A stretch of 64,000 nt of DNA. Source: Arenicellales bacterium. GTDB taxonomy: Bacteria; Pseudomonadota; Gammaproteobacteria; Arenicellales; Poriferihabitantaceae. This document shows positions 37,476 to 63,635 of this stretch, piece by piece. The notes under the pieces were generated by a model. The model did not search any database. It had not been told where the DNA came from and saw only the letters and a program-made list of their open reading frames with translations. The stretch lies in contig OZ220708.1 of assembly GCA_965116595.1 (NCBI GenBank), positions 1,590,875 to 1,654,874 of the forward strand, read 5' to 3'. The translations under genes and the position numbers were made by a program. The stretch's first letter is position 1. Each line of letters opens with the position of its first letter.

Positions 37476-39161
37476 ATGATTATTCGGGACCTCACGCCAA
37501 AACTGATCAATGCGGCGACTCGGTCGCCCGCAATTACGCTCACCGGGCCTCGGCAAAGTGGCAAGACTACGTTATGTCGCGCCGTGTTTTCCCGGCATCC
37601 GTATGTTACTCTCGAAGCGCCGGATGATCGTGCATTCGCATTGGACGACCCAAGGGGGTTTCTGGATCAGTTCCCGGAAGGCGCGATTATTGACGAAGTG
37701 CAACGCGCGCCAGATCTACTCTCTTATCTGCAAGGTATCATTGATGAGGATCCGCAGCCCGGACGCTGGATTCTCAGTGGCTCGCAAAACCTGTCCTTGC
37801 TGGAATCGGTCAGCCAGTCGCTGGCCGGGCGAACAGAAGTTCACCATCTGTTGCCGTTGACCTGTGGCGAGATTTCACGTTTTGATTCGCATCCCGGAAA
37901 TCTCGAAGAAACTCTTTATGCCGGAGGTTATCCCCGCATCTTCGATCACAATCTGGTTCCGGCAAATTGGCTCCGTTCGTATGTCGCCACTTATCTTGAG
38001 CGGGATGTGCGTACTCTCAGCAACATCGGCGATCTGGTGATGTTCCAGCGTTTCGTCGAGTTATGCGCAGGTCGCACTGCACAGTTGCTTAACTACTCGT
38101 CACTGGCTAATGATTGCGGCATATCGCAGCCGAGCGCGAAAGCATGGCTCAGCATACTGGAGGCGAGTTTTGTTGCTTTTCGCCTGCCGGCGTTTCACGC
38201 CAACCTGCGGAAACGGCTCGTGAAAATGCCAAAACTGTATTTTTACGATACCGGTCTGGTCTGTTGGCTTCTGGGGATCCGTCAACCTGGACAACTTCGT
38301 TCACACCCACTGCGCGGAGCAATCTTTGAGTCATGGGTTGTCTCGGAGGTTCTGAAACACCGGATCAATCGTGGTGAGAGAGGCGGCCTGTGTTTTTATC
38401 GGGACCGCAACGGGGCTGAAGTTGATCTCGTCATAGAAAGGCCGGATGGCCTTACATTGGTCGAAGCCAAGTCGACCATGACGGCCTCTTCAACCCTGTT
38501 CAATGGGCCCCGGCGTGTTCGCGGGCATTTCGACAGTGTCTCCCAATCCTGTAAGATTGTGGTCGCCTATGGCGGTGAGCAGTTTCAGCAGCGCGAGGAC
38601 GGGCGGCTGGTTCCCTGGCGAATGCTGCGCGCTGTGAGTCTGCTGAATTCCGAGTTCATCGTTTCGGTCTTCGCCGATGGCAGGCCAGTCGCTAATGCCA
38701 GCGTTTTGGTCCTGATGACAAACAAGACCTGGAAACGGGCTGTGACTGACAAAAACGGAGAGGCGATGCCCAACCTGTATTCTGTTCATATTCCGATGAC
38801 TGTCTATGTGGCGATGGAAGGTTTTACAGCGCATGTGGAGCGTGACTGGATTCCGGCCGAATGCACGCTCCATATCGAACTGAAAGCGCTTCCCAACGGC
38901 AGTGGAGCCGTGTTTTTTGAGAACGGACAGGGTCGCATTCCGGGGCTGACAGGGAGATTGAATCCGATCCGGGACAGCCAGGACAGATTGCATCTTTACG
39001 CGGACAACATTTCTGTGAACGATGGGGAGCGGCAGCCGGTTCCCTTTGCTATTGGCGAGGAGTTGCGCGCCACTGACACCGATGGAAAGGAAAAGCGGCT
39101 GCGCGTCGTCGATATCACGGGCCGGTCGGCCCTGCTCGAATACCATTCAACCCGCGATTAG
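37476..39161 (+). CDS. AAA+ ATPase with DUF4143 (COG1373-like) plus ~170-aa C-terminal extension
   Basis: GPRQSGKT, IIDEVQ, LSGS, KMPKLYFYDTG, EVDLV..EAK; extra beta-rich tail. Confidence 0.85.
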   Translation: MIIRDLTPKLINAATRSPAITLTGPRQSGKTTLCRAVFSRHPYVTLEAPDDRAFALDDPRGFLDQFPEGAIIDEVQRAPDLLSYLQGIIDEDPQPGRWILSGSQNLSLLESVSQSLAGRTEVHHLLPLTCGEISRFDSHPGNLEETLYAGGYPRIFDHNLVPANWLRSYVATYLERDVRTLSNIGDLVMFQRFVELCAGRTAQLLNYSSLANDCGISQPSAKAWLSILEASFVAFRLPAFHANLRKRLVKMPKLYFYDTGLVCWLLGIRQPGQLRSHPLRGAIFESWVVSEVLKHRINRGERGGLCFYRDRNGAEVDLVIERPDGLTLVEAKSTMTASSTLFNGPRRVRGHFDSVSQSCKIVVAYGGEQFQQREDGRLVPWRMLRAVSLLNSEFIVSVFADGRPVANASVLVLMTNKTWKRAVTDKNGEAMPNLYSVHIPMTVYVAMEGFTAHVERDWIPAECTLHIELKALPNGSGAVFFENGQGRIPGLTGRLNPIRDSQDRLHLYADNISVNDGERQPVPFAIGEELRATDTDGKEKRLRVVDITGRSALLEYHSTRD

Positions 39162-39854: not shown

Positions 39855-39926
39855 CAGTCAATCATTTCCGGCAGATTCCTGACACCCCGATCTGGTCTTG
39901 AAATTGATACTTATCTATCAATATCT
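39855..39926. repeat. Repeat B, copy 1 (72 bp)
   Basis: CAGTCAATCATTTCCGGCAGATTCCTGACACCCCGA...TATCAATATCT matches 42064-42135 with few mismatches. Confidence 0.9.
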
Positions 39927-40273
39927 GGCGACTCAATCTCTGCGAGCATGATCTGCACTACGCGGCGCAATTCCGGCAGGTTGCTGGTTGCATAAAGCCA
40001 GACCAGACGCGGCGCTACATGGTCGTAGCCATGGGCCAGATAGTTCCGAAAATCGATGATGTGGCGCATTTCGGGAATCCGACCGGCGAGATCTGGATGA
40101 TCCGCATTCAGGCGATTGACCGCTTCACCGATGATCTCGAACTTGCGTTCGACTGCGGCCTGCGTCCGCGCATCGGACGAGTAGGAGGCGCTGTCCATGC
40201 CGTCAATGAACAACTGTATGTCGGCACCCGCCTGATCAATGTCCGTCAACAGGACTCGGGGGTCACGTCGTAT
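39911..40273 (-). CDS. HepT/DUF86 HEPN ribonuclease toxin; expected start codon reads ATA (possible pseudogene)
   Basis: AVERKFEIIGEA, FRNYLAHGYD (R-X4-H); 5' end ATA CGA CGT GAC CCC overlaps the MNT stop. Confidence 0.8.
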   Translation of the reverse strand: MRRDPRVLLTDIDQAGADIQLFIDGMDSASYSSDARTQAAVERKFEIIGEAVNRLNADHPDLAGRIPEMRHIIDFRNYLAHGYDHVAPRLVWLYATSNLPELRRVVQIMLAEIESPDIDR

Positions 40274-40574
40274 AAACAAGTTCGCGGGATTCGTTGATGG
40301 AGGCACGCAGATACGGGTTGCGGAACTCGTGATTTTCGACCAGATCCACAGGGCGCCCCAAGACATCGCTCAGCGCGTCGACGAGGCCGAAGAACTGTTC
40401 GAGAGGCTGCAGGTCGCTGTCGGGATCGAACTCGACAAGGAAATCGGCGTCACTGGTGTCGGGATTGAAATCCACGCTGCGCGCAGCTGAACCAAACACC
40501 TCAAGACGCACGACATCGTAGCGTTGGCAGAGTTCGGCCAGATATTCCTTCTTGTCAGCAATGGCGGGGTGCAT
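40263..40574 (-). CDS. MNT (minimal nucleotidyltransferase) antitoxin
   Basis: VFGSAARS...SDADFLVEF, VLGRPVDLV. Confidence 0.9.
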   Translation of the reverse strand: MHPAIADKKEYLAELCQRYDVVRLEVFGSAARSVDFNPDTSDADFLVEFDPDSDLQPLEQFFGLVDALSDVLGRPVDLVENHEFRNPYLRASINESRELVYTT

Positions 40575-46695: not shown

Positions 46696-47127
46696 ATGCC
46701 TTCATCCACCCGAGATAGAATCATGCGGCATCTGGATATTGTCAAACAATTCCAGCCTGCCCTGCATGGCGAAACCCACGCTCCCTCTCCCGATATGGTT
46801 GATGACGACCACTATCGCGCCTACACGCGCTCGTCACATGACGTCGGTGGTGAACCGGATATCCCGATTCCCTGGGAAGAGAAGGAAGAGGAGATCTGGG
46901 AACACAATACTTTTGTCACTTGCGAGGTGCTGGCCTGGCGGGGTGTCTGGAATGCCGAGGAGCGGCGGCGGCGTCAAAATGTTGACGTCGGCCAGACGAT
47001 TTACCTCGGCTTGCCGTACTACGGCCGCTGGCTGATGACTGCGGCCCTGATCCTGGTCGACAAGCAATACGCTACCCTGAGCGAGCTTCAGGACAAGATT
47101 CACGAAGTGAGGCAACGTTATGAGTAA
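46696..47127 (+). CDS. scnB: Thiocyanate hydrolase beta subunit
   Basis: HDVGGE, EKEEEIWE.NTF.TCE.LAWRGVW.AEERRR.QN.DVGQT.YLG.PYYGRW, as recalled for Thiobacillus ScnB. Confidence 0.92.
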   Translation: MPSSTRDRIMRHLDIVKQFQPALHGETHAPSPDMVDDDHYRAYTRSSHDVGGEPDIPIPWEEKEEEIWEHNTFVTCEVLAWRGVWNAEERRRRQNVDVGQTIYLGLPYYGRWLMTAALILVDKQYATLSELQDKIHEVRQRYE

Positions 47128-47491
47128 TAAACCTGTTTACGATCGCGAACATCACGTCAAGAAAGCCACGGGGATCGGCGATCCCCAGTGTTTTGCCGGG
47201 GAAGCTGCGCCGGCCAGGTTCAAGGTGGGAGACCAGGTTCGGGTCCGTGACCTGCCTGATCTGTTCTATACCCGGACGCAAACCTACTTGCGAGGAACGG
47301 AGTGCACCGTTTCTGCGCTTGTCTATGAAAGCCCGGCCGCCGAAGACGAGGCCTGGGATAATACCGACAAGGCCGAATGGTTTTACAGCCTCGTCTTCAA
47401 GCAGAGCGATCTTTGGTCCGATTATCCGAAGACCTTTGGCGGCGATACGCTGGAGACTGAATTACCGGAGCGTTGGCTGGAGTCGGCCTAG
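47120..47491 (+). CDS. scnA: Thiocyanate hydrolase alpha subunit
   Basis: ATGIGDPQCF, F.VGD.VR..DLPDLFYTRT, YESPAAEDEA, DTLETE.PER.LE. Confidence 0.92.
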   Translation: MSNKPVYDREHHVKKATGIGDPQCFAGEAAPARFKVGDQVRVRDLPDLFYTRTQTYLRGTECTVSALVYESPAAEDEAWDNTDKAEWFYSLVFKQSDLWSDYPKTFGGDTLETELPERWLESA

Positions 47492-47552
47492 AGCCTGCAC
47501 CGGAACTCACACTTGCACGAATTGACGAAATAACTGTTGAGAGGAAAGATAA

Positions 47553-48248
47553 ATGTCTGACGATCACAAGCATGCGCCGATGGTTGATGAAGTAAGCGAA
47601 TTCGAAATTCTGGAAATCGCGGTTCGCGAACTTGCCATTGAAAAGGGCCTGTTTACCCAAGAGGATCACAATGCCTGGACCGAGTATATGCATACCCTCG
47701 GGCCGCTGCCGGCGGCACGCCTTGTGGCCAAGGCCTGGCTGGATCCTGAATTCAAAAAACTCGCGGTAGAGGATGGCGTCAAGGCCAGCCTTGAAGTCGG
47801 GATCGATTGGATCAAGACTATGCCGACACAGTTCGGTACCCCAAGTGACTATTGCAGTTTCCGCGTCATGGAAGATACGCCGACCCTGAAGCATGTCGTA
47901 GTCTGCACTTTGTGCTCATGCTATCCGCGCCCGATACTGGGCCAGTCTCCCGAGTGGTATCGTACGCCGAATTATCGTCGGCGCCTTGTACGCTGGCCCC
48001 GGCAGGTGTTATCGGAGTTCGGTTTGCAGTTATCGGAAGACGTGGAAGTCCGGGTGGTTGACTCCAATCAGAAATCCCGCTTCACCGTGCTGCCGGTTCG
48101 TCCGGAAGGGACTGAGGGCTGGACCGAGGATCAATTAACCGAAATCGTCACGCGTGATTGCCTGATCGGAGTAGCCTTGCCGAAACCGGGCAAGACCGCG
48201 AACGATCCTCGTCCGATCCGCAAGGCGCTGAAACCCTACAACCACTAG
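47553..48248 (+). CDS. scnC: Thiocyanate hydrolase gamma subunit (Co-binding)
   Basis: VCTLCSCYPRP: Co-type Cys motif with Arg where nitrile hydratases have Trp (YPWP). Confidence 0.95.
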   Translation: MSDDHKHAPMVDEVSEFEILEIAVRELAIEKGLFTQEDHNAWTEYMHTLGPLPAARLVAKAWLDPEFKKLAVEDGVKASLEVGIDWIKTMPTQFGTPSDYCSFRVMEDTPTLKHVVVCTLCSCYPRPILGQSPEWYRTPNYRRRLVRWPRQVLSEFGLQLSEDVEVRVVDSNQKSRFTVLPVRPEGTEGWTEDQLTEIVTRDCLIGVALPKPGKTANDPRPIRKALKPYNH

Positions 48249-48266
48249 ACAACGCGTGATGCCGAC

Positions 48267-48674
48267 ATGACCTTGATCAATCCCGAAAAGATTGCGCTTG
48301 ACGAGGAAATGCAGGCGCGCGATCTTGAAAACTCGCCGATCGACTTGCTGGAAGAGATCAGGCGGGATGGTAGTCATTGGGAAGACCTGGCATCGAAATG
48401 GGGAGTGGACAACCCGGACCCGCCCTGGAAAATATGGCTGGAAGCCACGTGCGAAGTCCTGGCAGATAAAAATTGTGCATTGCCAGCGCTGGAACGCCGG
48501 TGGGAGGAAGACGATCTCAGCGAGGAGCTGTACAAAGATGTTCCTTTTCCGGAACGGCAATTGTTGGCCCTGGCACATTCGATGATTCGACGCGGGTTGA
48601 TCGACGAGAAGGAACTGGCGACGCACAAAAAGGTTGTAGAAAAGCGACTGCACATGGTGGACCAGATAACTTAA
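48267..48674 (+). CDS. SCNase activator/metallochaperone (P15K-like)
   Basis: NHase-beta-like tail (PFPERQLLALAHSMIRRGLIDE.EL), about 15 kDa, directly after scnC. Confidence 0.75.
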   Translation: MTLINPEKIALDEEMQARDLENSPIDLLEEIRRDGSHWEDLASKWGVDNPDPPWKIWLEATCEVLADKNCALPALERRWEEDDLSEELYKDVPFPERQLLALAHSMIRRGLIDEKELATHKKVVEKRLHMVDQIT

Positions 48675-51838: not shown

Positions 51839-52024
51839 ATGAGTACTTTAGCAACGACATCGGCAATTAGCGTACCCACTATCGGCACTCGCGTGCTGAG
51901 TCAGCTGGTAGCTGCATTAATTCTGGGTTCAGTCATTCTCTATGGGGCGGGATTTGCGAATATGGGAGTCGCGCATAGTGCTGCCCATGACGCCCGTCAT
52001 TCACAGGGCTTCCCTTGCCATTAG
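51839..52024 (+). CDS. cbtB: Cobalt transporter subunit CbtB
   Basis: Single TM then HSAAHDARHSQGFPCH. Confidence 0.92.
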   Translation: MSTLATTSAISVPTIGTRVLSQLVAALILGSVILYGAGFANMGVAHSAAHDARHSQGFPCH

Positions 52025-52049: not shown

Positions 52050-52811
52050 GTGGTATTTCGGAAAGTCGTCTACTATTCGATTCTGGTTGGGATCGTAGCC
52101 GGCCTCGTCCTGACCGCGGCCCAACGTTTGCAGGTTGTGCCGATCATCTTTACTGCGGAGGTATACGAAAGTACGTCGATAGACACCGGATCAGGTGGGG
52201 CTGACGACCACGCACACTGGTCGCCGGAGGCAGGCATGCGGACTGTGTTAACCGCGTTTTCCAACGTGCTGACAGCTATTGGATACGCACTGATACTGCT
52301 GTCCGTGATGCTGGCTGTACAAACCTGGTCCCCAGGCAAGCCAAACCGACTTACCTGGCAGAGGGCGCTTGGTTGGAGCCTGGCAGGATATGCCATATTC
52401 TGGTTAGTGCCATCACTTGGTTTGCCACCGGAAATTCCTCTGCAAAATGCCGCCGAACTGCAAGATCGTCAGGTCTGGTGGGTAATCTGTGTCGTCTGTA
52501 CGGCTGCCGGGCTTGGTGGACTTGCTTTCGCGTCGACACCCTGGCGATGGCTGGCGCCACTGGTCATCGCGGTCCCTTACCTGATCGGCGCACCGCATCC
52601 GGAAGGTCCGATGTTTATTGGCCAGACCCCGGAATTCGCAGGGGCACTTGAGGCGCTTGCTGCTGAATTTTTCTATGCCACGGCCATCGTGAATGCCGTG
52701 TTCTGGCTGGTTCTTGGTTCGCTGGTTACCTGGTCCGGTGTCCGGATCAGCCGGAGTATGGCAACAGCGGACAAGGATTCTTCCAAACCCGCTACCACAA
52801 CCTCGGCTTAA
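52050..52811 (+). CDS. cbtA: Cobalt transporter subunit CbtA
   Basis: P.I..AEVYE, PSLGLPPEIP, RQVWW, GAPHP. Confidence 0.92.
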   Translation: MVFRKVVYYSILVGIVAGLVLTAAQRLQVVPIIFTAEVYESTSIDTGSGGADDHAHWSPEAGMRTVLTAFSNVLTAIGYALILLSVMLAVQTWSPGKPNRLTWQRALGWSLAGYAIFWLVPSLGLPPEIPLQNAAELQDRQVWWVICVVCTAAGLGGLAFASTPWRWLAPLVIAVPYLIGAPHPEGPMFIGQTPEFAGALEALAAEFFYATAIVNAVFWLVLGSLVTWSGVRISRSMATADKDSSKPATTTSA

Positions 52812-52825
52812 CTCAAGGAGTCAAA

Positions 52826-53218
52826 GTGACCAATAAGATCAGTATCATCTGTTTGTCGGGTGAACACGAAAAGCTGCAAATGGCGGCCATGGTGGCCTCG
52901 GTTGGAGCTGCATCAGGAGATGAAGTCACGGTTTTCTTTTCTATGAACTCGATGAAGTACTTTATCAAGGGCAATGAGGACACTGTCCCGGCCGAGGGTG
53001 AATTCGGCGCTACTGCCCTGAATCGTGAGGGTGTGCCCCCCTTTCGGGATTTGTTCCAACAGGCAGTAGAGCTTGGTGATGCGGCCTTGCTTCCCTGTTC
53101 GATGGCGATGGACCTGCTGGAATTGAAGGATGGTGATCTGATGAACGAGTTCGGACCGTCTACCGGGTTGACCAAATTCTTGAGCGATGCAGAGGGATCG
53201 CAAATTATAACTTTTTAA
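52826..53218 (+). CDS. DsrE/DsrF-like (DsrE2/E3-type) sulfur carrier
   Basis: V.VFFSM, PCSMAMDL conserved Cys. Confidence 0.82.
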   Translation: MTNKISIICLSGEHEKLQMAAMVASVGAASGDEVTVFFSMNSMKYFIKGNEDTVPAEGEFGATALNREGVPPFRDLFQQAVELGDAALLPCSMAMDLLELKDGDLMNEFGPSTGLTKFLSDAEGSQIITF

Positions 53219-53248
53219 TGGTAGAATTTCTGTGTAAGGAGGGATGAC

Positions 53249-53479
53249 ATGAGTGAGCATATCATCATTGATGCAAAGAACACCTATTGCCCGGGCCCAT
53301 TGATGGAGTTGATCCGGTGCGTGAAACAGGCGGAGGTCGGCGACGTACTCGAGTTGCTTTCGACCGACAGCGGCACTGCTAATGACGTTCCCGAGTGGGT
53401 CGCCAAGATCGGCCATGAAATTTTGAGCTCGGAGCAAATCGATGACGTCTGGCACGTCACGGTGAAAAAGGTCAAGTAA
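53249..53479 (+). CDS. TusA-family sulfurtransferase
   Basis: IDA...CPGP.M, LSTD.G..NDVP.W. Confidence 0.92.
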   Translation: MSEHIIIDAKNTYCPGPLMELIRCVKQAEVGDVLELLSTDSGTANDVPEWVAKIGHEILSSEQIDDVWHVTVKKVK

Positions 53480-53520
53480 CGCCCGTTCCAGGTCGCTGCG
53501 CTGAAATACGGAAGGTTGAA

Positions 53521-54654
53521 ATGAAAATTCTGGTAGTGGGTGGCGGTACCGGTGGTACGATCACCGCCAACAATGTGGCCCGACGCCTGGCGTCGGAAAT
53601 AAGTGCAGGCAAGGCGGGTATCACGATGCTGTCCGCATCCGACCGCCACATGTATCAACCCGGCTTGCTGTACGTTGCTTTCGGGCAGATGATGCCTGAT
53701 GAACTGTATCGCGATCAGGCGAGCCTGCTTGAAAGTTCCATAGACTTTCATGTCGATCCGGCTGAAGATTTTGATCTTGACAATAACCGGGTGACGACGC
53801 AGAGCGGCCAGGTTCATGACTACGACGTACTTGTTATCGCAACCGGTTCGCGCATCATGCCGAAGATCATTCCCGGCCTCAACGAGGGCGCCGAAACCTT
53901 TTATACCGAGGAAGGGGCGATCAAGATGTTCAAGGCCCTGCGGGAATTTGAGGGCGGCAAGGTTGCTACCATCGTCGGTGTACCTCACAAGTGTCCTATT
54001 GCACCGGTGGAGGTAACTTTTTCGCTGCACGATTATTTCAAGTCCCGCGGCATTCGCGACAAGGTCGAAATCAAGTACCATTATCCGATCAACCGGATTC
54101 ACAGTATCGAAAATGTGGCTGCCTGGGCGGAGCCCGAGTTTCGACGCATGGGTGTCGAGTACGAAACCCTTTTCAATGTCGAGGAAGTCGACGTAGAAAA
54201 CAAGATTGTCAAGAGCCTCGAAGGTACCGAATATCAGTACGATCTGCTGATTTCGATTCCCGAACATAACGGGGTTGAAGCCATTATCAACAGCGACCTG
54301 GGGCAGGACGGCTGGATACCGACTGATCGGCACAAGCTGACGATGACGGGCTATGACAATGTCTATGTCGTGGGCGACACCACCGATCTGCCGGTCAGCA
54401 AGACAGGGTCAGCAGCTCACTTTCAGGCTGAAGTCATTGCAGAGAATATTGCCTCGATGATCAAGATAGGCACACCGGTCACAGAGTACAACGGCAAGGT
54501 GTACTGCTTTATAGAAGCCGGTTACGATAAGGCAACCTACGCAATGTTCAACTATGACTTCCCGCCCGATTTGAAAGAACCGAACAAATCCATGCACTGG
54601 TTCAAGGTCAGTTATAACAAGATGTACTGGACCAGTGTTCGCGGGCTACTGTAA
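53521..54654 (+). CDS. Sulfide:quinone oxidoreductase-like flavoprotein (short type)
   Basis: VVGGGTGG, KCPIAP, VGD...P.SK.G..AH, YCF; the two Cys lie at SQR-like positions. Confidence 0.8.
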   Translation: MKILVVGGGTGGTITANNVARRLASEISAGKAGITMLSASDRHMYQPGLLYVAFGQMMPDELYRDQASLLESSIDFHVDPAEDFDLDNNRVTTQSGQVHDYDVLVIATGSRIMPKIIPGLNEGAETFYTEEGAIKMFKALREFEGGKVATIVGVPHKCPIAPVEVTFSLHDYFKSRGIRDKVEIKYHYPINRIHSIENVAAWAEPEFRRMGVEYETLFNVEEVDVENKIVKSLEGTEYQYDLLISIPEHNGVEAIINSDLGQDGWIPTDRHKLTMTGYDNVYVVGDTTDLPVSKTGSAAHFQAEVIAENIASMIKIGTPVTEYNGKVYCFIEAGYDKATYAMFNYDFPPDLKEPNKSMHWFKVSYNKMYWTSVRGLL

Positions 54655-54665
54655 GGCAGACATCA

Positions 54666-55070
54666 ATGACCTCTGGACCAGAAAACGAAAACAGCAACAG
54701 CCTGGAAAAAAGTCTTGAAGGGTTGACCGAGATCGGTACCGTCATCGCTGCAGCCAAGGATGCGCTTAACGACGACATGGTTGCCAGAATGTCTTCGGCG
54801 TTTTCCGAGGGCGTCATGTTGCTTGATCGCCTGACCCGGAACCAGGCCCTCGTCCGGTTGCTGCAAAATCTTGATCGGCCGGAGAATCAGGCATTGCTGA
54901 ATAGCCTTTCGGATGCGCTTGGCAAGACCAGTATCGAGATGTCTTCTTCGTCGCCGGCAAAGGGAGGGTTCGGTAACCTGGTCAAGCAATTGAACGACCC
55001 GGATACGCAGGAAGGTCTGCGTATACTCGCCATGTTTGGTAAGCACCTGGGGGCGGGTATACGTAAATAA
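54666..55070 (+). CDS. DUF1641-family protein
   Basis: Helical; GGFGNLVKQLNDPDTQEGL motif; usual SQR neighbour. Confidence 0.75.
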   Translation: MTSGPENENSNSLEKSLEGLTEIGTVIAAAKDALNDDMVARMSSAFSEGVMLLDRLTRNQALVRLLQNLDRPENQALLNSLSDALGKTSIEMSSSSPAKGGFGNLVKQLNDPDTQEGLRILAMFGKHLGAGIRK

Positions 55071-56573: not shown

Positions 56574-57401
56574 TTGATGATCAGTGTAGACCCCCATTGC
56601 CGATCCCATTCGCTGGATGACGAAACCTCCGGGCGCCTGATCAGCCGGCTGGAAAGCCGTGCGCAGGATGACGTGTTCACCCGACTGTTCGACCGCTATG
56701 CCGACACCCTGGAATTTTCCGACGATACACTCACGCTGGAGGTGGGGTGCGGAACCGGGGCCATGATTCGCTCGCTGGTAAACAAACCGAATTTCCGCGG
56801 CCGCATTGTCGGTGTCGATCAGAGTCCGGCTTTCATCGATGCAGCGTCCGGCTTCGCCGAAAATGCCGGTATCACGGATCGGGTCGAATTTCATGTCGGC
56901 GACGCGCATAATCTTGATAGTGAAGACGGAAAATTCGATCTGGTCATCGCCCATACTGTGATCAGCCATGTTGTTGATCCGCAATCGGTTGTCAACGAGT
57001 GCGCCCGAGCCTTACGTCCTGGAGGAATGCTTGTTGTTTTCGATGGTGACTACTCGTCGCTGACCTACGGGTTTCCTGACGATCCGGAACTGGGACGGCG
57101 TATGGATCGTGCACTTGCCGAAACCACCTTCCACAATCCTTTGGTAATGCGGGATCTGATCAAGCTGTTGCCCGAAAGTTGTTTTGACATCGAAGATACC
57201 CTTGCCGAGGTCGTTTCGGAAATTGGGGAGGCCAGCTACTTCAAGTCCTTTGCCGACACTTACGCGCCCATGGTGGCGAGTGGTGACATGATGGACGCCG
57301 GTGAGGTGGAGCGTTGGGTCAATGGGCAGGCCGAACTGATTGCCAGCCGACAGTTTTTTGCCTCATGCAACTACTACACCTATCGGTCACGGCGCGTCTG
57401 A
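56574..57401 (+). CDS. Class I SAM methyltransferase (UbiE-like)
   Basis: LEVGCGTG, GVDQS, VGDAH, LRPGG. Confidence 0.9.
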   Translation: MMISVDPHCRSHSLDDETSGRLISRLESRAQDDVFTRLFDRYADTLEFSDDTLTLEVGCGTGAMIRSLVNKPNFRGRIVGVDQSPAFIDAASGFAENAGITDRVEFHVGDAHNLDSEDGKFDLVIAHTVISHVVDPQSVVNECARALRPGGMLVVFDGDYSSLTYGFPDDPELGRRMDRALAETTFHNPLVMRDLIKLLPESCFDIEDTLAEVVSEIGEASYFKSFADTYAPMVASGDMMDAGEVERWVNGQAELIASRQFFASCNYYTYRSRRV

Positions 57402-57511: not shown

Positions 57512-57802
57512 CTATTCGAGAATCAGCGGCTGGAAATCTGACCACAGAATGACCGGTTCAGCCGGGGGCGGCCTGTCCGCTGGAAAATGGTTCAGGTTTG
57601 AGGTTATTTCGAGCCCGGAGTTATAGGCGCCGAGAACCATGTACTGGATAAAATCGTCGGGATGATCTTCCAGAATGGTCTCGGCGCCGCATTTGTAGTT
57701 GAGTTGAATCCGCCATTTCATGCGCGAAACACGCTCGTAAGTATGTTCACAGATGGGAGGCCAGAACATATTAAACTTCTTGATTTGACTATTAATAACC
57801 AT
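57512..57802 (-). CDS. Hypothetical 96-aa protein downstream of the tubulin-like gene
   Basis: Perfect AGGAGG RBS 5 nt before ATG. Confidence 0.7.
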   Translation of the reverse strand: MVINSQIKKFNMFWPPICEHTYERVSRMKWRIQLNYKCGAETILEDHPDDFIQYMVLGAYNSGLEITSNLNHFPADRPPPAEPVILWSDFQPLILE

Positions 57803-57880: not shown

Positions 57881-59071
57881 TTAACTCTTACCTGCCTGGT
57901 TGTATTGATCAAGGTCCTTTTTTGAAAGTCCTGGCAGGCAAATATCAGCGTAAGACGTAAGATGATCGAAAAACTCATGGAAATCCATCGTCACGTTCGA
58001 TTCATTGCCTTCGGACAGGAAGCTGTCAGCCAGTCGTTGGCGTAACTTGTCGCTTATTCCGTCAAAACCGATCTCCCTTGGAACATGTAAATGAACATCT
58101 GCACAGTGCGAACGGAAATCCTTGCTGACGCATGAAAAGTCATCCAGATGGTCAATCCACTGGCAGATGACATTACGCCATTTGCTCAAGGGTTCACCAG
58201 GCAGAACCTGTACACCGGGGTGGGTGAATTTCGCCAGATTGTAATAAATCCAGTTCCCACCTTCAGAGGCAGATGCCAGCACCCGGGATAGTGCGCCGCC
58301 GTCGTCGTGAACCGCAAGGCGCATGAACGCATCTTGCGTAAACTTGGTGGTCACCTCCTGGCGGATACGGTTACGCAAGTCTACTTCACCGGTATTCGTA
58401 TACGAGGTCAGGCGCTGCCATGAATGTTCGGTATTGGTTACAAAAAACCCGCCGTTGAATGGATTTGCATCGTCAGACAAGCCGTCGAGCTCGTCGAGGC
58501 TTTCGCGCAGAGTCGCCGGGACATCACCATCACCACTATGAGGCAACTGTCCGACACCGATGATCGTACCGTTGCCGTCAAGCTTGTCGTTTGCCAGGTG
58601 GGATGCAAGATCCACAGCCATGCCACTCCCGGTTCCACCCGCCAGATTGAAGCAAACCATAATCCTGGATGACAGTTCCGTTTGACCGATATGCCCGGCG
58701 AAATCTGTCAGGGCAGCGTTCAAAGCGCCTGCGTCATCATTGTAGTCGTCGTTGTAGATTTTCCTGGCTGCAGCACGGGAAAGATGCGACCCGGCTTCGG
58801 CTCCATCAAGCGAGACCGACTGGAAATGAAAATTCTCAGGTGGAATATCCAGTTCTTCGAGTCGTGTCTTCATGGCATCTGCATAGCCTATTGCACGATC
58901 CAGATCCGCGTCCCCCACATCCACCACAAGAGCGGCAACCCGTGCCCCTGGGTTCATTAGAATATCTTCGACTTCCCCGGTACGCAAAAGCCCGTCTACG
59001 TAACCGGCGCCGGAACGTCCAATACCCACAACATGCAGGCAATAAGGTGATTCATTAGCATTCGACATCAT
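57881..59071 (-). CDS. Tubulin/FtsZ-like GTPase-domain protein
   Basis: N-terminal VVGIGRSG, ALVVDVG, signature NLAGGTGSG; GGAGG RBS. Confidence 0.78.
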   Translation of the reverse strand: MMSNANESPYCLHVVGIGRSGAGYVDGLLRTGEVEDILMNPGARVAALVVDVGDADLDRAIGYADAMKTRLEELDIPPENFHFQSVSLDGAEAGSHLSRAAARKIYNDDYNDDAGALNAALTDFAGHIGQTELSSRIMVCFNLAGGTGSGMAVDLASHLANDKLDGNGTIIGVGQLPHSGDGDVPATLRESLDELDGLSDDANPFNGGFFVTNTEHSWQRLTSYTNTGEVDLRNRIRQEVTTKFTQDAFMRLAVHDDGGALSRVLASASEGGNWIYYNLAKFTHPGVQVLPGEPLSKWRNVICQWIDHLDDFSCVSKDFRSHCADVHLHVPREIGFDGISDKLRQRLADSFLSEGNESNVTMDFHEFFDHLTSYADICLPGLSKKDLDQYNQAGKS

Positions 59072-59352
59072 CTATCCTCCGATAGTCCAGATTGATACAA
59101 GTCAATAGTGTAGGGTGCTACTTTTGAGCATCCTCTTGAAACACACCACCAATAACCGCTATGGGCACTCTAATTCAATAGGGAATACTACCTATTTTAC
59201 CGATAATTCGTGCAGAATTTATACGCATCAATACTAGACAAGTAAATTAATGTGTGTTAATAAAAGATTGATGTAGGTGGTAGATAATTAGACAAAACGA
59301 ATAATTAAGAAGTCTAAGAGCGAAATACCCCAATTGGAACGTTTGTTCCTGT

Positions 59353-60522
59353 ATGCTTTTTGACAAGAAGGAAATAATTATGGGGTTAGTGAAAACCAGG
59401 ACATCCGCCCCTTGGCGGGTTGGTGTACTATTCTCTATAACGGGGAATACTGCGGTAATTGAGAAAACTCAATTAGCCGGGACTATGCTCGCTATTGAGG
59501 AAATCAATAACGCTGGGGGAATTCGTGGTCGTCCGCTTGAGCCGGTAGTCTACAATCCCATGTCGGATACGTCTGCTTTTGGTCGTTACGCCAAACAGTT
59601 GATGATCAAGGACGGCGTCAACACCATTTTCGGGTGTTATACCTCCAGTAGCCGGAAGTCTGTTTTACCGGTCGTAGAGCGACTCAATGGATTGTTGTGG
59701 TACCCTACGCTGTATGAAGGATTCGAGTTTTCCCCGAACATTGTTTACACCGGAGCGGCACCCAACCAGAACGTGACCGTGTTGTGCCACTATTTGATGA
59801 GGCGCTATGGAAGCCGTTTCTATTTTATCGGTTCTGACTACATATATCCCCGTGAGTTGAATCGCCTGATGAAGGAATTTCTTGGCCACAATGGTGGCTC
59901 GGTGGAGGGGGAGTCGTACTTGAGTCTCCGCGCCAGTCGGGGTGATTTCAATCCGATCATCAGTGAGATAAAAAAATGTCGACCCGACATAATTTTCTCA
60001 ACGGTGGTTGGAGAGACAACATCTTATCTGTATCAGGCCTATGCTGATTCCGGTCTCGACCCCAAGACCATGCCGATTGCAAGTCTGACCACGACAGAAA
60101 CAGAAATCCGGGATATGGGTTATGATGTCGGCGAGCATCATCTTACTGCTGCGAGTTATTTTCAAGGGATAAAGAGCGATACGAATTCTCAATTTATAAG
60201 AAAATACAAAGAACATTACGGCGAAGACGAGCCGACCAATGTTTGTGCGGAAGCCTCCTATTTTCAGGTGCATCTTTTTGCCAGGGCGCTGCATGAAGCT
60301 GGAACAATGGACACCGATGTCTTGAGAAAAATGGTTATGGAAACCGAATACACCGCACCCCAGGGAAAAGTCTCACTGGATTCGAGAAATGGTCACACAG
60401 CCCTGTGGTCAAGGATAGGACGCGCAAATCGTGAAGGTCAGTTTGATATTGTTTATGAATCATCAAAACAGGTTGCAGCAGATCCGTATCTGATTGGTTA
60501 TGGAAGGGTCGCTTCCGATTGA
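59353..60522 (+). CDS. AmiC-like cytoplasmic amide sensor (periplasmic-binding fold)
   Basis: FGCYTSSSRK, YPTLYEGFE, GSDYIYPRE; no signal peptide; start may be 59380. Confidence 0.85.
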   Translation: MLFDKKEIIMGLVKTRTSAPWRVGVLFSITGNTAVIEKTQLAGTMLAIEEINNAGGIRGRPLEPVVYNPMSDTSAFGRYAKQLMIKDGVNTIFGCYTSSSRKSVLPVVERLNGLLWYPTLYEGFEFSPNIVYTGAAPNQNVTVLCHYLMRRYGSRFYFIGSDYIYPRELNRLMKEFLGHNGGSVEGESYLSLRASRGDFNPIISEIKKCRPDIIFSTVVGETTSYLYQAYADSGLDPKTMPIASLTTTETEIRDMGYDVGEHHLTAASYFQGIKSDTNSQFIRKYKEHYGEDEPTNVCAEASYFQVHLFARALHEAGTMDTDVLRKMVMETEYTAPQGKVSLDSRNGHTALWSRIGRANREGQFDIVYESSKQVAADPYLIGYGRVASD

Positions 60523-60547: not shown

Positions 60548-61135
60548 TTGGGAACTGACAGAGAATATTTAAAGGAGTTCAGAAAACTGGAATTTCTGGT
60601 CGTAATTCCGTTTGATGAAGATGGTAACAATATTACGCGGGAACTGCGGCACCTCGGTGGTATCGTAAAGCAGCTATGGCCTGCCCCGGTGCCCTTGCCG
60701 ACGGAAGGTGGAATACTGATTTGCGAGCTTGTTCCTGATATTGCCGAGTGTACGTCCTGGCTGCCGGGAAATTCCCCGCTCCCATTCATATTGCATGTGC
60801 CCAGGAACCAGGAAGTCGATTTCAGGGAAATCCGCAATAGTGCACCCCATGGATTACTGTATTCCCCGGTAACTGAAACATCAATTGTTACAACAATTCT
60901 GCTTGCGCGGGACCAGTTCAACTATGAGCGGCGGTTGCGGTTTCGGATAAACAAGCTTGATGATAATCTAAGATCAATGCGTTCGGTGGAGAAAGCCAAG
61001 GCGATCCTGATGGAAGCCAGGAATATTGGTGAAAGTGAGGCATACCGGGTACTCAGACAAACTGCGATGGAACGCCGGATTACCCTGGGGACTATCGCAA
61101 AAGCAATTGTTGACTCTCACGAACTATTGAGGTGA
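60548..61135 (+). CDS. AmiR-like pseudo-receiver/ANTAR antiterminator
   Basis: C-terminal VEKAKAILM....E.EAY..LR..AM; follows the AmiC-like gene. Confidence 0.9.
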   Translation: MGTDREYLKEFRKLEFLVVIPFDEDGNNITRELRHLGGIVKQLWPAPVPLPTEGGILICELVPDIAECTSWLPGNSPLPFILHVPRNQEVDFREIRNSAPHGLLYSPVTETSIVTTILLARDQFNYERRLRFRINKLDDNLRSMRSVEKAKAILMEARNIGESEAYRVLRQTAMERRITLGTIAKAIVDSHELLR

Positions 61136-61158: not shown

Positions 61159-61193
61159 CAACAATGACGTTGCAAAATGGCAACGGCGCCATT
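61159..61193 (+). promoter_or_regulatory. ANTAR-binding dual-hairpin RNA motif
   Basis: CAAC-AATGAC-GTTG and AATGGC-AACGGC-GCCATT: two stems with hexaloops carrying A1/G4. Confidence 0.85.
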
Positions 61194-61206: not shown

Positions 61207-61260
61207 AAAACGCCCCATGAAGATGTCCGGTAAACCGGGCCTTTGGTGTGGGCGTTTTTT
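61207..61260 (+). terminator. Intrinsic terminator in the transporter leader (attenuator)
   Basis: AAAACGCCC...GGGCGTTTT followed by a T-tract. Confidence 0.7.
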
Positions 61261-61341: not shown

Positions 61342-62529
61342 ATGAGTACGATTAACAGACGCAAGTTCCTCAAGTCAAGTTCGGTGGTCGCCGCAGCTGG
61401 TGCATTGCCGATGCCTTTTATCTGGCCTAAAGGCGCCAGCGCCGATACCGTAAAGATGGGAATCCTGCATTCCCTTACCGGTACCATTGCAATCGCTGAA
61501 AAATCGGTTGTCGATGCCGAATTGCTTGCAGTAGAGGAAATCAACAATGCTGGCGGAGTCATGGGGCAGCAAATCGAGGCTATTGTCGAAGATGGTGCAA
61601 GCGACTGGCCTACCTTCGCTGAAAAAGCGCGCAAACTGATCGACAAAGACAATGTGGCGGCAGTAATGGGATGTTATACCTCGGCCTCGCGCAAGGCGGT
61701 ATTACCGGTTTTCGAAAAACTGAATGGCCTGCTTTATTACCCGACCTATTACGAAGGACTCGAGATCTCGCCCAACATAATGTATACCGCACAAGAGGCC
61801 ACTCAATCATCGATTGCGGCGACCGAATGGTTATATGAAAACCGCGGAAAGAGTTATTATCTGGTGGGTTCGGACTATATCTGGCCACGCACCACGATCA
61901 AACTGTGCAAGATCACCCTCGACCGTCTCGGTGGCACCGTAGCAGGTGAGGACTACTACCCTCTGGGGGATATCGAGTTCTCTTCAGCGATCAACAAGAT
62001 CAAGGCAGCCAAACCGGATGTCATCATCAATTGTGTGGTCGGCGGCAGTAATGTGGCATTTTTCAAGCAATTGAAAGCAGCCGGTGTAATTGATAGTGGC
62101 ACGACGGTATTATCGCTCGCGGTCTCCGAGGAAGAGGTATCCGGAATCGGTAGCGAAAATACTGCCGGCACCCTGACTTGTATGAGTTATTTCCAGAGTC
62201 TGCAAAATCCGGCCAACCAGAAGTTCGTCAGTGCGTTCAAAAACAAATATGGCGCTGACCGGGTGACCGGTGATACACTTGAATGTGCCTATATTTCGGT
62301 ATACCTGTGGGCGATGGCGGTTGAGAAAGCACAGAGCATTGAAGTAGAAAAGGTAGTAGCGGCATCGTCTGAACTTGCAATCGACGCACCGGAGGGCAAT
62401 GTGAAGTTCCATGTTGACAATCATCATCTCTGGAAACACGTCAGGGTCGGCGAGTTTCTGCCTGATGGACAAGTGAATATGCTTTATGAATCACCTCTTA
62501 TTGAGCCTGACCCGTTCCCGAAACTGTAA
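61342..62529 (+). CDS. UrtA/FmdD-like urea/short-chain amide ABC substrate-binding protein
   Basis: Tat NRRKFLK, GILHSLTGT, ASDWPTFAEKA, TSASRKAVLP. Confidence 0.9.
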   Translation: MSTINRRKFLKSSSVVAAAGALPMPFIWPKGASADTVKMGILHSLTGTIAIAEKSVVDAELLAVEEINNAGGVMGQQIEAIVEDGASDWPTFAEKARKLIDKDNVAAVMGCYTSASRKAVLPVFEKLNGLLYYPTYYEGLEISPNIMYTAQEATQSSIAATEWLYENRGKSYYLVGSDYIWPRTTIKLCKITLDRLGGTVAGEDYYPLGDIEFSSAINKIKAAKPDVIINCVVGGSNVAFFKQLKAAGVIDSGTTVLSLAVSEEEVSGIGSENTAGTLTCMSYFQSLQNPANQKFVSAFKNKYGADRVTGDTLECAYISVYLWAMAVEKAQSIEVEKVVAASSELAIDAPEGNVKFHVDNHHLWKHVRVGEFLPDGQVNMLYESPLIEPDPFPKL

Positions 62530-62732: not shown

Positions 62733-63635
62733 ATGAGCGGCGAGATGCTTGTGCTGCAGGCCTTTACCGGTCTTAGCATATTCACGGTGCTGATGTTGAT
62801 GGCCCTGGGGTTGGCCATTGTTTTTGGTTTGATGGGCGTGATCAACATGGCCCACGGCGAGTTGATGGCGATGGGCGCCTACACGACCTACGGTACATCG
62901 CTTCTGTTCCAGGCTTTCTTCCCCGACCTGATGGGCATTTATTTCCTGGTCGGTATCGTACTCGCGTTCTGTACTACATTCGTGTTCGGCTATTTGCTGG
63001 AGCGCAGCCTGATCCGTTTTCTGTATGAACGTCCGCTCGATACGATGCTTGCGACATGGGGGGTGGGGTTGTTGTTGCAACAACTCTATCGCCAGTTTAT
63101 CAATCCAAGGCCGGTCAGTGTTCCCACCGCCTCCTGGCTGCAGGGGGTCTGGCAGGTTACAGACAGCATCTCCTTTCCGATGAGCCGGATATTTATTATC
63201 GCACTGGCCTTCGTCACGGCAATACTGGTTTACCTGTTGCTTTACAAGACCCGCTGGGGACTTCTGATCCGGGCAGTGACCCAGAATCGCGGGATGAGCG
63301 GGGCGGTTGGAATAGATCAGAATCGGGTCGATTCCTACACCTTCGCGCTTGGCTGTGGTCTGGCCGGTATCGCTGGCAGTTCGTTTACCATGCTGGCATC
63401 AACGGCGCCGGACACCGGCCAGGCCTATATTGTCGACACTTTCATCGTAGTCGTATTTGGTGGGGTAGAGAGCATACTGGGGACAATACTGTCGGCATTT
63501 ATAATTGGTGAAATACAGGCCTGGTTAGGGTATTACCTGAGCGGATCGATGGCGCGTGCGGGTGTATTGCTACTGGTGATTGTAGTGTTGTATTTCAGAC
63601 CAAACGGTCTGTTCTCCACCCGGGTCAGGCGATGA
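62733..63635 (+). CDS. UrtB-like ABC permease (short form)
   Basis: ALGLAIVFGLMGVINMAHGE, RPLDTMLATWG. Confidence 0.92.
   Translation: MSGEMLVLQAFTGLSIFTVLMLMALGLAIVFGLMGVINMAHGELMAMGAYTTYGTSLLFQAFFPDLMGIYFLVGIVLAFCTTFVFGYLLERSLIRFLYERPLDTMLATWGVGLLLQQLYRQFINPRPVSVPTASWLQGVWQVTDSISFPMSRIFIIALAFVTAILVYLLLYKTRWGLLIRAVTQNRGMSGAVGIDQNRVDSYTFALGCGLAGIAGSSFTMLASTAPDTGQAYIVDTFIVVVFGGVESILGTILSAFIIGEIQAWLGYYLSGSMARAGVLLLVIVVLYFRPNGLFSTRVRR

Follow-up and report, generated by a model that had tools for sequence, protein, structure and literature searches.

The tubulin-fold gene and its locus

We analysed a 64,000-nucleotide stretch of contig OZ220708.1 (assembly GCA_965116595.1, forward-strand positions 1,590,875 to 1,654,874) from an Arenicellales bacterium, referred to below as the window, and focused on a minus-strand gene at 57881-59071 that encodes a protein with a tubulin/FtsZ fold. 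Its open reading frame (ORF) starts with ATG, 5-8 nt downstream of a GGAGG ribosome-binding site. The closest relatives, 94-95% identical, come from metagenome-assembled genomes of Arenicellales and Poriferihabitaceae, sponge-associated gammaproteobacteria. We assign the product to class C, a third class of paralogue in the acetonitrile hydratase (ANHase) family, from its ORF, Pfam, AlphaFold2, Foldseek, alignment and tree. The gene and its immediate surroundings are as follows.

57512..57802, minus strand: conserved gene for a 96-residue protein, in the same direction as the tubulin-fold gene, separated from its downstream end by 78 nt and preceded by an AGGAGG site of its own
57881..59071, minus strand: class-C ANHase-family paralogue, 396 residues, tubulin/FtsZ fold
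59072..59352, no strand: divergent intergenic region of 281 bp between the tubulin-fold and amiC-like genes, 36% GC
59353..60522, plus strand: AmiC-like cytoplasmic amide-binding sensor of the UrtA/Peripla_BP_5-6 family, no signal peptide (TIGR03407 365 bits, below the 493-bit cutoff)
60548..61135, plus strand: AmiR-type ANTAR antiterminator (AmiR_N and ANTAR domains)
61159..61193, plus strand: tandem A..G.. hexaloop hairpins of the ANTAR-target type in the leader of the urtA-like gene (such a pair arose in 8/500 shuffles)
61342..62529, plus strand: UrtA/FmdD-like periplasmic binding protein for urea or short-chain amides, with a twin-arginine (TAT)-type signal
62733..63635, plus strand: UrtB-like ABC permease

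Tubulin-family proteins are regarded as cytoskeletal or segregation GTPases, and the original prediction, made from the DNA letters and ORF translations, read this gene as a tubulin/FtsZ-like protein with two nucleotide-binding motifs. Both motifs are there: GIGRSG, the T1 loop, at residues 16-21, and AGGTGSG at 144-150, which contains the T4 loop GGTGSG (145-150); both loops are intact. The fold is borne out by structure prediction. An AlphaFold2 model built on 20 relatives (pLDDT 87.5, pTM 0.90) matched exclusively CetZ, FtsZ, TubZ and tubulin in a Foldseek comparison with the PDB (best E 2e-12, about 400 aligned columns, TM 0.5-0.6), while Pfam placed the protein just above the cutoff of 27 bits for Tubulin_2 (29.0 bits) and under the cutoff for Tubulin PF00091 (17.3 bits). 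We conclude from the model that the gene product has the two-domain tubulin/FtsZ fold.

The window protein shares this two-domain fold, with its T1 GxGxxG and T4 GGTGSG loops, with FtsZ, CetZ, TubZ and tubulin, but at 10-18% identity these proteins are out of reach of phmmer and hhalign searches; the hhalign alignment of the family with E. coli FtsZ covers only the S1-T1-H1 region (residues 10-31). As the prediction had it, no canonical T7 loop, the 'synergy' loop that holds a catalytic acidic residue between H7 and H8, is evident; helix 230-271 of the model is unbroken and runs directly into a strand. The protein further differs from cytomotive tubulins in having no evident C-terminal tether, no dcw or partition neighbours, and enzyme subunits as its relatives. 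No dcw, phage or plasmid genes occur between 44 and 64 kb in the window, again as first noted, and an Rfam scan over 44-64 kb returned nothing relevant. The AT-rich spacer to the amiC-like gene is likewise real, at 36% GC against 52.7% for the window.

Tubulin_2, the best Pfam match, stems as a concept from FtsZl1 and FtsZl2, divergent non-division proteins (Makarova & Koonin 2010; PMC2875224), and the window protein resembles these as a divergent bacterial member of the tubulin superfamily. In FtsZl1, of about 1000 residues, an FtsZ-like N-domain is followed by a long coiled coil and then a helical C-domain, and the neighbouring genes encode VWA, OmpA and GTPase proteins (PMC2875224); the window protein, in contrast, is a globular protein of 396 residues with both tubulin domains and other neighbours. 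For FtsZl2, typified by PFL_1302, conserved gene neighbours are not reported (PMC2875224), whereas the ANHase family (390-570 residues) sits in a tightly conserved metallo-enzyme operon.

The acetonitrile hydratase family

At least 366 relatives, 386-576 residues long, came from a word-indexed search. With phmmer run exhaustively over 1.84 billion representatives, no more than 94 clusters passed E<=0.001, which makes this a compact, well-conserved family. We took 77 loci from one-per-species genomes, called and clustered their ORFs, and mapped gene order; linkage percentages refer to the 54 loci of at least 15 kb. Three classes emerged. Class A (64 proteins, about 510-550 residues) and class B (69 proteins, about 550-570 residues) are about 37% identical to each other; class C (24 proteins, 390-480 residues) shares about 55% identity with B and about 30% with A. 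In the tree class C forms a single long-branched clade nested within B, and the window protein belongs to it.

Classes A and B are encoded in one operon, whose canonical order is A, a highly conserved 108-residue protein, B, a COG0523/CobW GTPase, a CbtB/CbtA or NiCoT permease, a peroxiredoxin and a 2Fe-2S thioredoxin-like ferredoxin. Nearby are the aliphatic amidase AmiE (NF009802, 712 bits), a CbbQ-type AAA+ protein with a VWA protein, FmdA/FmdB, an amidase-signature (AS) amidase, acetyl-CoA synthetase, AmiC/UrtA, AmiR and a DUF255 thioredoxin. The 108-residue gene is present in 87% of loci, CobW in 81%, an amidase in 72% and a Co/Ni transporter in 67%. Any amide gene (AmiC/UrtA, AmiR or amidase) is carried by 46/54 loci (85%), so the possibility that homologues show no linkage to amide genes fails decisively, and the amide association drawn from the window alone extends to the family. 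The family occurs in sponge symbionts, lichen-associated Acetobacteraceae, cyanobacteria, rhizobia, Burkholderiales, Firmicutes and Rhodococcus, and the acetonitrile degrader Natronocella acetinitrilica has an A-small-B-CbtBA-CobW cluster.

A tblastn search of plasmids led to the enzyme. Twelve plasmids from Rhodococcus gave matches, among them the R. jostii RHA1 plasmid pRHL2, where the gene order is a MarR regulator, a binding protein, an aliphatic amidase, a 514-residue protein, a 99-residue protein, a 568-residue protein and a nickel/cobalt transporter. The window protein is 34% identical to the 568-residue protein over nearly the whole length (BLASTP, E 2e-80), and with the 514-residue protein it shares 28% identity across that protein's N-terminal half (E 2e-26); the tree places the 568-residue protein in class B and the 514-residue one in class A. 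The 108-residue family matched the 99-residue protein with an hhalign probability of 99.7% (E 1.5e-26). The 514-residue protein is annotated 'tubulin-like doman-containing protein', and the other two are annotated as hypothetical.

The anh cluster is presumably on pRHL2. The ANHase of RHA1 (AnhA/AnhB with AnhE; Okamoto & Eltis 2007; Okamoto et al. 2010) was in 2007 reported to differ from other nitrile hydratases. In three papers that cite this work (PMC3511329, PMC7193024, PMC6941271), the enzyme is a Co-type hydratase containing Co, Cu and Zn that acts on acetonitrile, propionitrile, acrylonitrile and butyronitrile, and its genes are given in the order alpha, AnhE, beta, AnhE being a metallochaperone. 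The pRHL2 genes RHA1_RS41530, RS41535 and RS41540 fit anhA, anhE and anhB by organism, gene order, sizes and these secondary citations. By sequence relationship, then, the family of the window gene is that of the two large subunits of cobalt ANHase, and its characterised role, that of the RHA1 enzyme, is catalysis, converting nitrile to amide upstream of an amidase. Gene context by itself had pointed to a metal-dependent enzyme producing short-chain amides; read at first as a new nitrile-hydratase-like metalloenzyme, A/B proved through the RHA1 match to be one already known.

The A-small-B operon of the wider family is the same as that of the RHA1 ANHase, and both stand in a setting of aliphatic amidase, Co/Ni transport and amide regulators. 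AnhE-like proteins of 108 residues outside Rhodococcus are 55-94% identical across phyla (L013, L024, L038 and other loci) and end in an invariant C-terminal Arg-Cys; RHA1 AnhE has no Arg-Cys. A full-length class-B model (pLDDT 80.7) also matched only FtsZ, TubZ and CetZ among PDB structures, and because of this the large subunits of ANHase are assigned, on modelled structures, the tubulin/FtsZ fold. Since Foldseek yields cytoskeletal proteins only, an ANHase structure is absent from the PDB. Sequence searches of the PDB with the window protein and with profiles of the B tail and both small proteins (the 96- and 108-residue families) returned nothing meaningful, with DusB at E 0.003 and PknB at E about 1. 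None of A, B, C, the AnhE-like protein and the 96-residue protein has a model in NCBIfam. In the literature searched, we found no paper joining tubulin-like proteins to amidase, CobW, nitrile hydratase, AnhE or ANHase; the NCBI automatic name of the A subunit does link ANHase to tubulin.

Beyond the tubulin core, A and B have in common three inserts, REFLKLEYPRYYWNPNYEPWLP, DDxKNxGVxxVWGDLY and GAPHE, and a 90-residue tail that carries GMAGECxWGCACW. No complete A/B pair examined is without the motif GECxWGCACW, which is usually in B, sometimes in both subunits, and in A in Firmicutes and RHA1; in the marine clade that includes the window's lineage, paralogue A has a GMAGECLWGCACW motif of its own (L024-L028). 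GECxWGCACW is a candidate metal site; its C-x3-C-x-C spacing is close to that of the metal claw in classical nitrile hydratases, C-x-L-C-(S/T)-C, a resemblance only. The T4 loop is less constant. In cyanobacterial pairs both subunits have a degenerate form of it (GDSVGSG, GESTGSG), as does the B of Acidisphaera; the variants GDSVGSG, GEGVGSG, GESTGSG, DGVGSG and GKTGSV were seen in L037, L042, L051, L078 and L079 (cyanobacteria), L030 and L085 (13625-14773). Because T4 degenerates in whole pairs that retain GECxWGCACW, the cysteine site is more fundamental than T4, and canonical GTP binding is probably not essential to the enzyme.

We conclude that the original prediction of a non-canonical tubulin homologue recruited into amide metabolism was right about the fold and the amide linkage. 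It does not stand as an undescribed system, since the family is the known cobalt ANHase of R. jostii RHA1 with its AnhE metallochaperone; the proposed roles of scaffold, GTP-sensing regulator or filament organiser are unlikely, the characterised role of the family being nitrile-to-amide catalysis. It also overlooked that the gene is a truncated third paralogue, that the core operon lies beyond the end of the window, and that a classical Co-type nitrile hydratase is encoded 10 kb away.

Class C in the nitrile and amide island

Class C keeps the tubulin core and two invariant B-specific loops, HPGVQVLPGE between S7 and the next helix, and EFFDxLTxY; in the window protein these are HPGVQVLPGE (284-293) and EFFDHLTSY (366-374). 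All 24 class-C proteins, the window protein among them, are without the three family inserts, the 90-residue tail and GECxWGCACW, and the window protein is about 170 residues shorter than the RHA1 B-type subunit. T1 and T4 are perfect in all marine class-C proteins. Comparison of the tubulin-fold gene with 86%-identical orthologues gave a dN/dS of 0.11-0.12, which indicates purifying selection.

The arrangement of large subunit, AnhE-like protein and large subunit is not found at the window gene itself, which, in contrast to the RHA1 operon, adjoins the unrelated 96-residue gene in place of an AnhE-like gene; the A-small-B core is elsewhere. For every C locus with enough sequence, an A/B core lies on the same contig at a distance of up to about 20 kb. 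The closest complete genome, OY760176.1, whose C is 94% identical to the window protein, has its core starting about 10 kb from C. Its island comprises C, the divergent amiC and amiR, a fragment of an ABC-transporter ATPase, an amidase, urease genes and a LuxR-type regulator, and continues with A, the small protein, B, CobW, CbtB, CbtA, a peroxiredoxin, AmiE, CbbQ, VWA, a MIP channel and DUF255. The short-chain amidase, Co/Ni uptake and COG0523 chaperone that accompany ANHase are thus all found in a single island in the window's lineage. The MIP/aquaporin-family channel (L084, 18621-19340) stands inside the ANHase-amidase operon of this genome and may let small neutral nitriles, amides or urea through. 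A C-to-core spacing of about 17 kb was seen on single chromosomes in the pairs L007/L024 and L006/L026, and the window's own A/B core should lie about 17 kb from C, beyond coordinate 64000.

A 95%-identical contig (L001) has the same gene order as the window and extends past its end. The genes to one side encode a classical nitrile hydratase (beta-N, beta-C, alpha) with a 135-residue accessory protein, then an ABC transporter and CbtB, then DsrE, TusA, an SQR-like protein and a methyltransferase; in the middle are the 96-residue gene and then the tubulin-fold gene; and on the other side amiC, amiR, five Urt-like genes, an amidase-signature amidase and urease genes. The operon thus continues after the UrtB-like gene with UrtC/D/E-like, AS-family amidase and urease genes. 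The position of C beside amiC is specific to Arenicellales, and in other clades C follows ferredoxin or CbbQ-VWA genes. The full system including class C was also found on plasmids of two cultured strains, Brucella anthropi CGMCC 1.17299 (plasmid p3, NZ_CP103349.1; L085) and Agrobacterium tumefaciens (CP129670.1). The order there is AmiC-like, ANTAR, CobW, CbtB, CbtA, A, AnhE-like, B, CbbQ, NorD-like VWA and C. These carriers suit genetics on class C. Class C has never been studied because RHA1 has no class-C gene, the plasmid tblastn placing the family there at two places only.

The 96-residue protein downstream of C belongs to a family that occurs in 17 related loci and whose invariant residues include His19, Cys37 and Trp13/29/86; dN/dS of its gene is 0.05-0.07. 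In some gammaproteobacterial loci the family sits upstream of paralogue A. It has no relatives in Pfam, NCBIfam or the PDB, and was rejected as an AnhE paralogue (hhalign probability 0.2%). Also rejected, as a partner of class C, was the S-adenosylmethionine (SAM) methyltransferase at 56574-57401, which shares 28% identity and only the generic SAM-binding core with the neighbour of C in Brucella.

Within the leader of the window's urtA-like gene, the tandem ANTAR-type hairpins are followed by a terminator-like hairpin at 61225-61240, and the same tandem arrangement occurs in the L007 urtA leader. Similar hairpin pairs lie upstream of paralogue A in L024 and L025, two Poriferihabitaceae loci with an A-AnhE-B operon. 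These leader sequences suggest antitermination by AmiR of both the urtA-like and the A-AnhE-B operons. At the level of the whole family, ANTAR-type hairpins in the A, B, C, CobW and amidase leaders of all loci were not above shuffled controls; tandem pairs preceded A in 5/62 cases against 3 in shuffled controls, and C in 0/20. Taken singly, the window's urtA leader and the A leaders of L024 and L025 look genuine. The 281-bp spacer has ANTAR-type hairpins on neither strand and a single weak sigma-70-like match, on the minus strand at 59260-59231. As hairpins are absent both before C genes and from the spacer, amide-responsive control of C is not shown.

At lower window coordinates than the tubulin-fold gene, and 10 kb from it, is the classical Co-type nitrile hydratase cluster (46696-48674, plus strand, continuing to 52811).

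46696-47127, plus strand: nitrile hydratase beta-N, one of two ORFs of a split beta subunit
47120-47491, plus strand: nitrile hydratase beta-C, overlapping beta-N by 8 nt
47553-48248, plus strand: nitrile hydratase alpha, with VCTLCSC
48267-48674, plus strand: 135-residue accessory protein, followed by an NMT1-type ABC transporter
51839-52024, plus strand: CbtB
52050-52811, plus strand: CbtA

As this cluster shares an island with class C, the genome has two unrelated nitrile hydratase systems there. Between this cluster and the tubulin-fold gene, at 52826-55070 on the plus strand, is a sulfur-trafficking or oxidation module of DsrE-like, TusA-like, SQR-type flavoprotein (53521-54654) and HMP-domain proteins. 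Further away, two small overlapping ORFs at 39911-40574 (minus strand) carry motifs like those of HepT (RNYLAHGYD) and of MNT nucleotidyltransferases (FGSAARS...D.D), and by eye are probably a toxin-antitoxin pair. A 561-residue ORF at 37476-39161 was considered as a second paralogue and rejected, being an AAA-type ATPase by sequence.

Possible roles of class C

We suggest, with a probability of roughly 60%, that class C is a non-catalytic accessory subunit of ANHase, most plausibly an assembly or maturation partner of the subunit that bears the cysteine motif. In the scheme we propose, the cobalt-dependent enzyme of paralogous large subunits A and B, with AnhE, turns small aliphatic nitriles into amides, which the adjacent amidase hydrolyses. 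Class C arose from the B lineage, keeping the tubulin core, with both nucleotide-binding loops in the marine clade, and losing the elements that A and B share outside that core; because the three inserts and the cysteine-motif tail are lost, we infer that it is non-catalytic. The A/B enzyme whose genes lie 10-17 kb off in this nitrile/amide/urea island would have C as its accessory partner, and C may bind the cysteine-motif subunit in place of B during assembly or maturation. The 96-residue protein, whose gene is presumed to be co-transcribed, possibly acts together with C.

This scheme is reminiscent of the beta-subunit-like activators NhlE, NhhG and P14K of classical Co-type nitrile hydratases, described in two papers (PMC3511329, PMC7329996) as 'self-subunit swapping chaperones': a truncated subunit paralogue is encoded near the enzyme, and the system has to load cobalt onto a cysteine-rich site. 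Class C, however, has no sequence or fold relationship to these proteins, and the likeness is one of logic only. AnhE, the published ANHase metallochaperone, is reported not to work by subunit swapping.

Several points weigh against an accessory, maturation-type role. The comparison with beta-like activators is an analogy only. Paralogue A of the window clade has its own cysteine motif, so that a heterodimer of A and C could be catalytically competent. Some Rhizobiales C proteins have a degenerate T4 (GKTGSV), and nucleotide binding is therefore not general to class C. RHA1, the source of the characterised enzyme, has no class-C protein, and the very naming of the pRHL2 genes as anhA/anhE/anhB leans on secondary citations, order, sizes and organism.

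The second of these points leads to the best-surviving alternative, which we consider rather unlikely: that class C is an alternative structural subunit that replaces B and forms an active heterodimer with A (in Rhizobiales, with B) of other substrate range or regulation. An A-C pair of the window clade would conform to the rule of one cysteine motif per pair through the GMAGECLWGCACW motif of A, and the retention of HPGVQVLPGE and EFFDxLTxY, together with strong purifying selection, also speaks for it. Yet C lacks inserts and a tail that are conserved in both A and B across phyla, which argues that both subunits of the active enzyme need them; C also sits on a long branch and has no AnhE-like or CobW gene of its own.

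More improbable is a role as a GTP-dependent polymerising or scaffolding organiser of the amidase or hydratase, or as a GTP sensor working with AmiC/AmiR, as the tubulin/FtsZ fold, the intact T1 and T4 loops and the divergent arrangement with amiC-amiR might have suggested. The sole characterised relatives are subunits of a soluble enzyme, a T7-type catalytic loop is not evident, and T4 is degenerate in some C proteins and in whole cyanobacterial A/B pairs that keep the cysteine motif. Adjacency to amiC is limited to the Arenicellales arrangement, and ANTAR-type hairpins precede none of the 20 C genes. That C is a functionless, decaying remnant of a duplicated B, as its shorter length and missing conserved elements could imply, is very hard to reconcile with ORFs that are intact in 24 loci of several orders, the dN/dS given above, and the conservation of its motifs, ribosome-binding site and co-transcribed partner gene.

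For the window gene itself the gain is the more modest one of a conserved extra paralogue, and although the system as a whole is already known, if obscure, class C appears to be new. Within the literature searched, ANHase as a tubulin/FtsZ-fold enzyme with a conserved cysteine site and fixed metal-trafficking and redox partners also appears to be new. A bolder generalisation, which we offer only tentatively, is that ANHase represents an unrecognised enzymatic branch of the tubulin/FtsZ superfamily, a heterodimer like that of alpha/beta-tubulin which a cysteine claw at the C-terminus has made a cobalt nitrile hydratase, with the window gene encoding a third, nucleotide-binding maturation or regulatory subunit that pairs with the catalytic one. 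The fold assignment, the candidate metal site and the map of accessory genes (CobW, CbtAB or NiCoT, peroxiredoxin, ferredoxin and class C) provide a concrete start on the ANHase problem. The wide taxonomic spread of the family suggests that the ANHase route from nitrile to amide, as a source of nitrogen and carbon, is commoner than its single characterised example implies.

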